Shown: positions 24,228 to 62,120 of the stretch, one piece after another
Numbering within the stretch: position 1 is the stretch's first letter
Layout: every line of letters begins with the position of its first letter
From: Escherichia phage vB_Eco_BGP
Length of the DNA: 64,000 nt
Sequence record: OZ035849
Reading direction: 5' to 3' (one strand)
Program-made: the position numbers and the translations under genes
The notes under the pieces: model-generated
What the model saw: only the letters and a program-made list of their open reading frames with translations
What the model was told of the DNA's origin: nothing
The model's database searches: none

Positions 24228-24373
24228 GTCCATTCATAGGTATTACAAGCGCTGCATTAGTATCTGGTAGCATTTTACTGACGGGTTTAGGCGTTGTTCC
24301 AGCCGTAGCAGGAGGTCTTCTTGCGTTCGGAATTCAACGTGTTATCATGACAGTTATCACAGTCATGCAGTAA
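24224..24373 (+). CDS. hypothetical small membrane protein (49 aa)
   Basis: ATGA overlap with gene 52 stop; Gly/Ala-rich hydrophobic. Confidence 0.4.
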   Translation: MSPFIGITSAALVSGSILLTGLGVVPAVAGGLLAFGIQRVIMTVITVMQ

Positions 24374-24378
24374 TTTTA

Positions 24379-24404
24379 GGGAGAGCCTCGGCTCTCCCTT
24401 TTTT
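24379..24404 (+). terminator. rho-independent terminator (GGGAGAGC-CUCG-GCUCUCCC, T-run)
   Basis: 8-bp stem followed by TTTTTT. Confidence 0.8.
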
Positions 24405-24430
24405 ATTTAAATTTTTTTTTTTACAAAACG

Positions 24431-24460
24431 GTTTACAACCAAAGCATTCCATGGTACTAT
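24431..24460 (+). promoter_or_regulatory. T4-type early promoter
   Basis: GTTTAC 24431-24436, TACTAT 24455-24460. Confidence 0.65.
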
Positions 24461-24502
24461 TACCCTATCAACACTGATACAGAAAAATAACTGGAGATTA
24501 AA

Positions 24503-59094: not shown

Positions 59095-59102
59095 TATAAA
59101 TA
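59095..59102 (+). promoter_or_regulatory. late-type promoter TATAAATA
   Basis: Exact TATAAATA right after the gene 31 stop, 140 nt upstream of rIII. Confidence 0.4.
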
Positions 59103-59241: not shown

Positions 59242-59490
59242 ATGATTAAACAATTACAACACGCTCTTGAACTGCAACGAAACGCATGGAATAATGGTCA
59301 CGAAAACTATGGCGCATCTATTGATGTTGAAGCCGAAGCTCTTGAAATCCTGCGTTATTTCAAACATCTGAATCCTGCTCAAACTGCATTAGCTGCTGAG
59401 CTTCAGGAAAAAGATGAACTTAAATATGCTAAGCCTTTGGCTTCTGCTGCACGAAAAGCAGTTCGTCACTTTGTGGTAACACTGAAGTAA
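59242..59490 (+). CDS. rIII: rIII lysis-inhibition accessory protein
   Basis: 82 aa, MIKQLQHALELQRNAWNNGHENYG...; matches T4 rIII. Confidence 0.88.
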   Translation: MIKQLQHALELQRNAWNNGHENYGASIDVEAEALEILRYFKHLNPAQTALAAELQEKDELKYAKPLASAARKAVRHFVVTLK

Positions 59491-59888
59491 TTTACTGGAG
59501 ATTCACTGCCTTAGTGTGAGCTAAAATCGAGGAGCCGTCGAACTGTCTGATTAATGATTTGCGAATCATTATAGTTTTAAGACCCCGGCAGTTTTACGGT
59601 GTACCTCTTGAATGTTATTCTTATAGCGGCAAGTGCATGCTACCCCGAGGTGATGGCCAATCGGGAGTACGCCTCAAGGCCTATATATCCATCAGTATAT
59701 ATCTTATCCTCGAGAAATCGAACCCGGAACCTTTAAGCTAACGGTGTGCAACAGATAAGAGCTATAAGGTATGATGACGGGTTTATGGTTATCCTGGTCG
59801 TTAAATATCCAAAAACCTATGTTCCCCTTGAGGGCTTGCGCAGGCAATGCCAATAAGTCCTGCATTTTCATTTAAAAGAGAATTTATA

Positions 59889-60065
59889 ATGGCAAAACAA
59901 GCTAAAGCAAAGAAAGCAGTTGAAAAGAAAGTTGGTGATTCTAAACGCGCTGGCTACAAGCGTGGGTCGAACTCTCGTATCAATCAAACTGTTGAGAAGA
60001 TCATGCGCCGAGCACGTGCGGTTCTTCGAGATGATGCTTCTCGTTTTGGTAAGCAGAAAGCATAA
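59889..60065 (+). CDS. hypothetical basic protein (58 aa)
   Basis: ATG 59889; Lys/Arg-rich (track ORF begins at 59847). Confidence 0.45.
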   Translation: MAKQAKAKKAVEKKVGDSKRAGYKRGSNSRINQTVEKIMRRARAVLRDDASRFGKQKA

Positions 60066-60070
60066 GTTGA

Positions 60071-60095
60071 GGACTCCTTCGGGAGTCCTTTTTTT
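60071..60095 (+). terminator. rho-independent terminator (GGACTCC-UUCG-GGAGUCC, T7)
   Basis: Hairpin identical to the one at 3990-4007. Confidence 0.8.
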
Positions 60096-61669: not shown

Positions 61670-62120
61670 GTTAGAGATTAGAAGCAATTTTAGGTGGCCA
61701 TCATGTGCATTAAGTAATTTCGCCCAATGGCCTTTCGTTATGGATGGTATTCAATTTGGAGGTCTTGAAGGATTCCTCCAAGGATGCAAGGTGAAAAACG
61801 TTGAACAACAACGTCGTATATTTGGGTTATCCGGGCTTGCCGCTCAACAAGCTGGAAGGTCTTATGCTAGAGCTCAGGACCGTGGGACCCTCTTCTGGCT
61901 TGGAGTTCCATTTTCAAGATACTCCCCGGCGTGGAAAGAATTATACACAAATGCATATTTTGAAGCAGCGATCCAAAACAAGGGCTTTCGTGATGCATTA
62001 CAAGCCTCGAAAGGAAAAGTTTTGAAGCACAGCATGGCTAGTGGTCTAACAAAAGATGATACAATACTAACCGAAGCTGAATTTATTGATGTGTTAAACC
62101 TATTAAGAGACTCTCTATGA
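61656..62120 (+). CDS. NADAR-family (YbiA-like) protein
   Basis: LSNFAQWPFVMDGIQFGGLEGFLQGCK aligns with the E. coli YbiA core FSNFAAWPIKVDGKTWPTSEHYFQAQK as I recall it. Confidence 0.55.
   Translation: MKMSELEIRSNFRWPSCALSNFAQWPFVMDGIQFGGLEGFLQGCKVKNVEQQRRIFGLSGLAAQQAGRSYARAQDRGTLFWLGVPFSRYSPAWKELYTNAYFEAAIQNKGFRDALQASKGKVLKHSMASGLTKDDTILTEAEFIDVLNLLRDSL

Follow-up and report, generated by a model that had tools for sequence, protein, structure and literature searches.

The only precedent for small RNAs of orphan function in the T-even group is the pair rnaC and rnaD of phage T4 (species 1 and 2), which are 119–139 nt long, T-even-encoded and co-transcribed. The non-coding repertoire assumed for T4-type phages consists of tRNAs, rnaC/rnaD and introns. 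A further kind of non-coding module is the PeSL (promoter-early stem-loop), which Arbiol and co-workers are said to have described in 2010 and which reportedly combines an early promoter with a simple stem-loop, many such repeats being found per T4-type genome. RNAs built on a four-way junction, such as the hairpin and twister-sister ribozymes and the SAM-I, NiCo and Mn2+ riboswitch aptamers, possess docking loops and variable tips. Comparative genomics has also yielded a catalogue of 10,006 candidate viral structured RNAs, among them cis-regulatory candidates of the T4 type near gp20 and gp32 (Fremin, Bhatt and Kyrpides 2023, PMC10690425). No large lytic phages have been studied better than those of the T4 type, which are common in the therapy collections for Klebsiella, E. 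coli, Shigella and Enterobacter. Here, we report that a covarying RNA of about 400 phages adds to this repertoire. It occupies the middle of the spacer between rIII and gene 30.9 in a Tequatrovirus (T4-like) segment. In the following, "the window" refers to the whole 64-kb stretch of DNA that was analyzed, "the island" to the spacer and "the core" to this RNA.

The spacer between rIII and gene 30.9

The island (59491–59888) is non-coding, and its boundaries had been correctly placed in the earlier note: rIII ends at 59490, and gene 30.9 begins at 59889 with a conserved start, ATGGCnAAACAAGC, that is found across all genera. An alternative start at 59847 appears in some records. The gene order on the + strand is cd, 31.2, 31.1, 31, rIII, the island, 30.9, a terminator, an early-promoter-like site and 30.8 (Table 1). 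The segment 59100–60200 shares 99.9% identity with Escherichia phages slur03, VEc20 and vB_EcoM_Lutter and with Yersinia phage fPS-2. The product of gene 30.9 belongs to no Pfam family. Upstream of rIII lies the box TATAAATA, which matches the T4 late-promoter consensus and from which late transcripts would probably extend across rIII, the island and gene 30.9. The predicted terminator downstream of 30.9 closes this putative rIII-island-30.9 transcription unit. Inside the island there is no promoter-like site or terminator, and the search for second copies of island segments in the 64-kb window returned only chance 12–15-mers.

Mechanical ORFs of 60, 55 and 45 aa can be drawn in the island. 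As the earlier note had stated, none is credible: each of the six frames is interrupted by stops in most of the 32 homologous copies, where indels measure 1, 2, 3 or 8 nt. A protein-coding gene or pseudogene was rejected, since no frame is conserved and the indels are not confined to multiples of three. The intact protein in related phages that the same note held would speak against its reading was not found, no frame being conserved in the 32 copies. The note was also right about the absence of a tRNA cloverleaf, as ARAGORN predicts no tRNA or tmRNA genes in the whole window, nor in five related loci. The GC richness it had judged by eye is real and modest, with 42.5% for the island vs 35.3% for the window, which places the island among the highest 2.4% of all 398-bp windows; for the central 144 nt the value is 47.2% (top 1%). 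Single-sequence folding z-scores are ordinary (-0.9 for the core, -1.1 for the island and 0.05 for the minus strand), and the evidence for structure is therefore comparative and not thermodynamic.

Table 1. Features of the rIII-30.9 region, in positions of the window.
Feature	Position	Strand	Description
TATAAATA box	59095..59102	+	5' of rIII; match to the T4 late-promoter consensus
rIII	59242..59490	+	Lysis-inhibition accessory protein, 82 aa; upstream anchor gene; ORF, with annotation in T4 and near-identical phages
M1	59497..59530	+	Candidate hairpin; stem 59502-59506/59516-59520, conserved loop UGCCUUAGU
M2	59528..59611	+	Domain closed by UCGAGGAG/CCUCUUGA; holds hairpin 59552-59571
Core	59620..59768	+	Structured RNA; covariance-model match 59624-59767, 178 bits in the window
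P1	59624-27/59761-64	+	8 bp in the window phage (59620-27/59761-68)
P2	59628-30/59679-81	+	Invariant, 3 bp
Internal loop	59631-38 opposite 59673-78	+	Invariant; AAGUGCAU opposite CUCAAG
P3	59639-51/59656-72	+	Three single-nucleotide bulges
P4	59682-88/59695-701	+	
P5	59702-08/59754-60	+	
P6	59710-13/59718-21	+	GAAA cap; elsewhere GUAA, UAAA or longer loops
P7	59722-26/59742-47	+	Invariant 15-nt loop 59727-41, GAACCUUUAAGCUAA
J7/5	59748-53	+	Invariant GCAACA
Module B	59769..59817	+	AUGAUG ... GGUUAUC ... CGUUAAAUAUCCAAAAACC; conserved element, also in T4
Module C	59821..59840	+	Hairpin GU(A/U)CCC-loop-GGG(G)CUUG, written GUnCCC-loop-GGGGCUUG; seen, not quantified
Module D	59840..59863	+	Hairpin GCAGG/CCUGC; conserved loop CAAUGCCAAUAAGU containing GGCAATGCC
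Gene 30.9 homolog	59889..60065	+	58 aa, very basic; downstream anchor gene
Terminator	60069..60090	+	Predicted strong intrinsic terminator; 9-bp stem, UUCG loop, T-run; terminator-like Rfam alignments

Covariation and fold of the core RNA

Among the candidates listed in the earlier note, a structured non-coding RNA is strongly supported by covariation, the main RNA being the core and not the part of the island that had been singled out. RNAalifold, applied to a plain MAFFT alignment of 17 distinct copies, predicted 43 pairs, 13 of them with two-sided changes, and this alignment was used to build the covariance model R1. The set was enlarged to 32 distinct copies, including divergent ones from Serratia phages, an Aeromonas-labelled Karamvirus, EcS1-like phages and Slopekvirus-type phages. 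Here, 99.3% of the 1375 pair cells are canonical and two-sided compensatory changes affect 28 of the 43 pairs, vs 2–6 in six slid controls; none of 500 shuffles matched any of the observed measures. Because two of the alignments (A4 and A6) had been fitted to the model, they favor the structure; the MAFFT-only alignment (A2) gave the same fold. Every helix is supported by covariation except the invariant 3-bp P2, as illustrated by the series UAUAUA/UAUAUA, UAUACA/UGUAUA, UAUGCA/UGCAUA and UCGA-GAAA-UCGA, CCGA-GAAA-UCGG, CUGA-GUAA-UCAG. Canonical pairing falls from 99.3% on the + strand to 94.3% on the opposite one, where 69 G-U cells turn into A-C mismatches; the RNA is therefore encoded on the + strand, like the genes. 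Compensatory helices on one strand, which are the generic signature of a structured RNA, are thus present, and we regard the core as very probably a genuine structured RNA under selection.

The core is a self-contained RNA of about 145 nt and comprises seven helices. P1, P2, P4 and P5 join without linker nucleotides to form a four-way junction, whose arms are P1, the P2-P3 arm with its 8x6-nt internal loop, the P4 hairpin, and P5, which splits into P6 and P7. The tips of P3, P4 and P6 are free to vary; the junction, J7/5 and the internal and P7 loops are constant. The strings fixed in all copies are GGCAAGnGCAUG, CCUnAnGGCCUAU and ACCyGGAnCC...GCUAACrGUGUGCAAC, and about 55 nt of the core are still invariant after the Slopekvirus-type copies are added. 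Much of the sequence invariance among the rIII-type copies may stem from recent horizontal spread rather than from functional constraint. As modeled, a scaffold carrying two invariant loop regions on adjacent arms is what one expects of an RNA with a specific tertiary pocket or binding face. Scanning all column pairs of the alignment for a pseudoknot gave phylogenetic noise only, with no covariation support. Inspection of the internal loop by eye revealed no 11-nt GAAA receptor, kink-turn or sarcin-ricin motif, and a search of the 64-kb window for antisense targets of the invariant loops returned none, with about 0–1 expected by chance. Inside the P7 loop, columns 123 and 127 show a possible change from a U-A to a C-G pair, too near in sequence for a helix.

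The core RNA family is absent from Rfam, and no description of it was found. The earlier note had proposed an Rfam search and a comparative alignment of related phages: the latter reveals covariation and no ORF remnants, and the former (Rfam 15, 4227 models) gives no match inside the island or on the isolated core even at E<=10. The whole window gives no match at the gathering threshold, the divergent copy of Yersinia phage JC221 only a 13-bit chance match to a miRNA, and permissive searches that included the JC221 non-coding locus only terminator look-alikes. Searches of the literature for the sequence, for rIII or 30.9 and for structured RNAs of Tevenvirinae, some of them poorly targeted, found no description, and the text of the 2023 catalogue article does not mention rIII, T4-like phages or Straboviridae (PMC10690425).

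Distribution, flanking modules and a second locus

When 50,697 phage records were searched with the island by blastn, 179 of them contained the full 398 bp. In T4 and many relatives, only the two ends of the island match (61%, in two pieces), and in Klebsiella, Raoultella, Kosakonia, Enterobacter and Erwinia phages only the middle is common (80–96% identity). The middle is therefore a unit of its own. In all blastn groups the match lies directly after rIII. In Klebsiella phages, the core is the only shared part, with about 95% identity, and the rIII proteins are just 70–77% identical, approximately, to that of the window. A census of the same records identified the core in 406 of them, near full length in 395 that span several Tevenvirinae genera and have it directly after rIII, with Klebsiella (161), Escherichia (129), Shigella (27), Enterobacter (27) and Yersinia (18) as the main hosts, along with Salmonella, Citrobacter, Serratia, Raoultella and Erwinia. 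None of these records annotates the core as an RNA, and it is often overlaid by a spurious "hypothetical protein".

Beyond the census, the core is found in 20 Slopekvirus-type records, 18 IMG/VR contigs and 14 metagenome contigs, all of them T4-like. R1 detected the core once in the 64-kb window and also in 15 of the 40 rIII-encoding IMG/VR loci, where the core is always on the gene strand and starts no more than about 140 nt after the rIII stop; a looser gapped-pattern scan of IMG/VR added no members. Of the metagenome matches to the invariant 18-base block, 14 pass the model and the other 10 occur by chance, and the contigs that pass are mostly large and T4-like (55–174 kb), with a few short fragments. 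Among 185,579 bacterial and archaeal species genomes, the exact 18-base block has a single match, which occurs by chance and does not pass the model. Host mimicry was rejected, as 5,426 complete E. coli genomes contain no blastn match to the core.

At the rIII locus, T4 has an empty site: the sequence ending in CTCTTGAATGT is directly joined to GAATGATGACGGG, and about 155 bp of the window are missing. Scanning 65 kb of T4 with the model (positions 1–50,000 plus the rIII, uvsY-uvsW and tRNA regions) detected no copy of the core. In Tequatrovirus, at least three alleles exist for the site between M2 and module B, namely empty (T4), core (the window) and module X, a different cassette consisting of a covarying hairpin of about 45 nt that is found in five loci (L024, L026, L029, L030 and L039). 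Truncated copies are rare; the one of Shigella phage CT01 lacks the 5' half. The core is dispensable for growth of T4-type phages. T4 is also the phage with transcriptomes, and the core has probably escaped attention because this reference phage has the empty site.

Divergent copies of the core, with scores of 74–83 bits, occupy another locus in about 20 Slopekvirus- and Pseudotevenvirus-type phages (K41P2, mtp5, KPN-12i, CPRSA and JC221 among them). There, uvsY, uvsY.-1 and a small ORF precede the core, which is convergent with uvsW and is not followed by any same-strand gene. In T4, the uvsY neighborhood corresponds to oriF. The 5' end of P1 is located 5–8 nt after CATAAATA or AGTAAATA, boxes of the type xxTAAATA that resemble the T4 late promoter TATAAATA, with 6–7 of 8 positions matching the consensus. 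A strong terminator, AAAGCCCCUUCCUUUCGGUUGGGGCUUU, stands about 150–350 nt downstream of the core, and several of the flanking modules travel with it to this locus.

These modules surround the core in the island as well, and several are also present in T4. The perfect hairpin TAATGATT-TGCG-AATCATTA, which had been said to begin the island, is found at the position given for it (59552–59571) but 61 nt into the island. It belongs to M2, has a loop of the UNCG type (UGCG/UACG), and in six distinct copies its 8 pairs are 100% paired, with 2 two-sided changes. M2 is present in T4 and shortened in Salmonella phage STML-198. The string GGCAATGCC, also pointed out in the earlier note, does occur at 59843–59851, but the inverted repeat is not conserved; the string lies in the loop of the covarying hairpin GCAGG...CCTGC of module D, whose stem reads GAACUGG/CCAGUUC in Gelderlandvirus-type phages. 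Both the perfect hairpin and GGCAATGCC belong to separate flanking modules that lie outside the main RNA. Module B is 98% paired in 26 distinct copies (8 pairs, 2 of them two-sided) and is placed 3' of the core in the window and in Erwinia phage Cronus, and 5' of it in Klebsiella, Serratia and related phages. Module C lies directly upstream of the core in two loci (L040 and L049) and downstream, adjacent or distant, in Slopekvirus-type phages. M1 may be a conserved hairpin, as hinted by one compensatory pair and 92% pairing in 5 distinct copies; it is present in T4, and a related copy follows the core in JC221. M1 shares TTCACTGCC and AGCTAA with type I-F CRISPR repeats. Its assignment as such a repeat or as an RNA anti-CRISPR was rejected, the Rfam CRISPR-DR models having no match at M1 and the covarying stem being different. 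The order of the modules relative to the core varies between genera, and the rIII neighborhood is a hotspot of shuffled RNA modules.

The core itself is portable between loci and genomes, is kept by selection and is confined to phages of Enterobacterales. A decayed mobile element, another of the candidates of the earlier note, agrees with these data in that the core behaves as a presence/absence cassette with another locus in Slopekvirus-type phages, but it is under strong purifying selection and is not decayed.

Possible functions and comparison with known RNAs

Regarding the function of the core, we lean towards a free-standing non-coding RNA in its own right. The island would then be the transcribed spacer of the rIII-30.9 operon, made of a string of autonomous RNA-structure modules. 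In rIII-type phages, the core would be transcribed together with rIII and 30.9 from the TATAAATA box and further upstream promoters, up to the terminator, and would be either excised from this transcript or retained as a stable domain of it. In Slopekvirus-type phages, it would instead make up the 5' portion of a dedicated late transcript that is non-coding and has its own late promoter. The variable helices may serve as a scaffold that joins the invariant internal loop and the P7 loop/J7-5 into one surface, which would bind or act on a partner, be it a protein, an RNA or a small molecule. The role is most likely the modulation of the infected cell (host takeover or counter-defense) and not a core phage function, because the core is an accessory element that is shuffled horizontally and occurs only in phages of Enterobacterales.

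Since the core at the rIII locus has no promoter or terminator of its own, it could simply be a part of the mRNA. It might work there as a cis-acting 3'- or 5'-UTR device of the rIII-30.9 transcript with no function as a separate RNA, for instance as a barrier to RNase E or exonucleases, as a spacer uncoupling the cistrons or as a translational operator for the basic gp30.9. The core is always co-oriented with the flanking genes, the small conserved hairpins around it are typical of T4 mRNA architecture, and rIII is tied to mRNA metabolism via S1 and RegB (PMC9409239). However, rIII and 30.9 are expressed without the core in T4 and many relatives, the order of core and modules differs among genera, and the Slopekvirus-type locus has neither rIII nor 30.9 nor a same-strand ORF downstream. 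Moreover, a nuclease barrier would need far less than a four-way junction in which about 55 unpaired or junction nucleotides are invariant. We consider a purely cis-acting element unlikely.

Still less probable, in our opinion, is a self-cleaving ribozyme of a new class, in which the P2-P3 internal loop would dock with the P7 loop/J7-5 to cut the polycistronic transcript. The modeled fold, with two conserved loops on adjacent arms and variable tips, does look like a four-way-junction ribozyme, and self-cleaving ribozymes are classically found between the genes of phages. Nevertheless, the isolated core matches no Rfam ribozyme model at E<=10, it is single-copy per genome where known classes are usually multi-copy and found in multiple contexts, and no cleavage-site signature can be named. 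A ligand-sensing aptamer, acting as a riboswitch or as a sponge for a metabolite or nucleotide second messenger, would be a very improbable reading of the same model. A multi-helix junction closed by P1 with highly conserved unpaired nucleotides is indeed the typical look of an aptamer, but no riboswitch family matches and neither an expression platform nor a terminator is present in the island. In addition, the ribosome-binding site of 30.9 is about 120 nt from the core, with different modules placed in between in other genera, and the Slopekvirus-type copies have no downstream gene. The riboswitch proper was rejected on this basis, an expression platform next to a regulated gene being absent both in the window and in the Slopekvirus-type loci. 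Finally, a DNA-level element (replication origin, recombination or packaging site) or a protein-gene remnant is scarcely credible: the presence/absence polymorphism, the small hypothetical proteins annotated over the core in some GenBank records and the adjacency of the Slopekvirus-type locus to uvsY would fit it, but the G-U wobbles make the pairing strand-specific, compensatory changes keep the RNA helices, including the GNRA-capped hairpin, no frame is conserved and the cumulative GC skew has no inflection; the replication or packaging site suggested in the earlier note is likewise unsupported.

To return to a free-standing RNA, a bolder version is conceivable, if doubtful: the core would found a new class of functional RNA traveling as a mobile cassette, with a ribozyme or aptamer fold or as an RNA that neutralizes a host factor, and E, X, B, C, D and M1 would constitute an "RNA accessory locus" around rIII. 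Such a factor might be an Enterobacterales protein of defense or RNA metabolism. In any case, with invariant loops borne by a simple scaffold, the core is a good candidate for a new RNA-protein or RNA-ligand interaction or a new ribozyme. The naturally occurring, near-isogenic alleles (empty, core and alternative cassette) make the function of the core accessible to allele swaps.

The 2023 viral catalogue likewise deals with covarying RNAs of phage intergenic regions, and the core is not individually described in its text (PMC10690425). The likeness of the core to functional RNAs with a four-way junction is architectural only and lies in a compact scaffold bearing conserved loops; unlike the hairpin and twister-sister ribozymes and the SAM-I, NiCo and Mn2+ aptamers, it obtains no Rfam score at E<=10, and neither a cleavage site nor an expression platform was identified for it. 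In contrast with the PeSLs, the core has no promoter consensus, is single-copy in the 64-kb window and adopts a seven-helix fold; a PeSL-type cassette was rejected, given that the island has no promoter-like site and no segment of it has a second copy in the window. Like the PeSLs, it is a short non-coding module that shuffles among T4-type intergenic sites, and the modules shuffled near rIII inform on how T4-type genomes trade non-coding cassettes. As for rnaC and rnaD, they sit at another locus, and T4 has them without having the core. Kinship was rejected: an unfiltered R1 search of the 69.5–74.5 kb region of T4 gave a best score of 9 bits (E 0.17), off rnaC/rnaD. The resemblance to rnaC and rnaD is that of small, T-even-encoded, co-transcribed RNAs of orphan function, and the putative RNA accessory locus at rIII may be likened to the T4 cluster of tRNAs, rnaC and rnaD.

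Alternative occupants of the core RNA site

The position taken in the window by the core RNA, a structured RNA of about 145 nt in the spacer between rIII and gene 30.9, holds in some related phages a different cassette, module X, which lies exactly at the core RNA site (window 59612-59768), empty in T4. Since this site, bounded by ...CCTCTTGAATGT and GTATGATGACG, contains module X, the core RNA or nothing, it has at least three alleles. A 5'-truncated core RNA copy was also found in Shigella phage CT01, where a deletion fuses M1 (…CACTGCCTTAGT), a small flanking module, straight onto the 3' strand of P4, one of the core RNA helices; this copy is evidence for decay of the core RNA in some lineages.

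Coordinates of the modules and of the ORF-poor stretches (window, positions in the window; L, related phage loci)
Feature	Position	Phage or context	Size or score	Sequence
Module E	window 59154-59213	gene 31-rIII spacer	~60 nt	GGUAGUCUACAACUGAGAGAUCUGUCGAAAGAAGAUGAAAUUCAGAAGAACGUGACUACC
Module X	L026:1877-1925; L029:1753-1800; L030/L039	core RNA site	~45 nt	CUAUCAUGCGUCAG...CUGUGUAAGUCUUGGUGG
Truncated core RNA	L092:1126-1274	Shigella phage CT01	69.8 bits	
ORF-poor stretch	L090:1552-1937	JC221		
ORF-poor stretch	L096:1548-1790	K41P2		
M1, part compared	window 59500-59526	rIII-30.9 spacer		ATTCACTGCCTTAGTGTGAGCTAAAATC

A second structured module and the Slopekvirus-type locus

Module E, a second structured RNA module without a match in Rfam, is located upstream of rIII in the window and in JS98-like phages, and between the core RNA (5') and gene 30.9 (3') in Klebsiella, Kosakonia, Enterobacter and related phages. 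All of its 16 pairs are canonical among nine distinct copies, and eight of them show two-sided changes.

At the Slopekvirus-type locus, where divergent core RNA copies follow uvsY, the 200-380 nt downstream of the core RNA are devoid of credible ORFs in JC221 and K41P2. The two phages share further conserved blocks there (e.g. CUUUUGCGnCGUCCGAUnGAnUUUACnUUCGGCG..GGUGAUUGAUAA), as well as M1-, B- and C-like modules followed by a bidirectional-looking terminator. This locus may correspond to a longer multi-domain non-coding RNA.

Gene 30.9 start and other stretches of the window

Public records place the start of gene 30.9 either at 59847 (72 aa) or at 59889 (58 aa). The 72-aa form is probably wrong, because only the start at 59889 (ATGGCnAAACAAGC) is conserved across genera. 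The 58-aa product is very basic and belongs to no Pfam family.

The longest stretch of the window without an ORF of at least 50 aa on either strand is 24228-24502 (275 nt). Region 61700-61999, where ORFs are present, has a GC content of 0.47, equal to that of the core RNA.

Module M1 and CRISPR repeats

M1 resembles a type I-F CRISPR repeat (GTTCACTGCCGTATAGGCAGCTAAGAAA), but lacks the hairpin of this repeat and matched none of the Rfam CRISPR-DR models. The agreement between M1 and the type I-F repeat, at about 19 of 28 positions, is probably due to chance.
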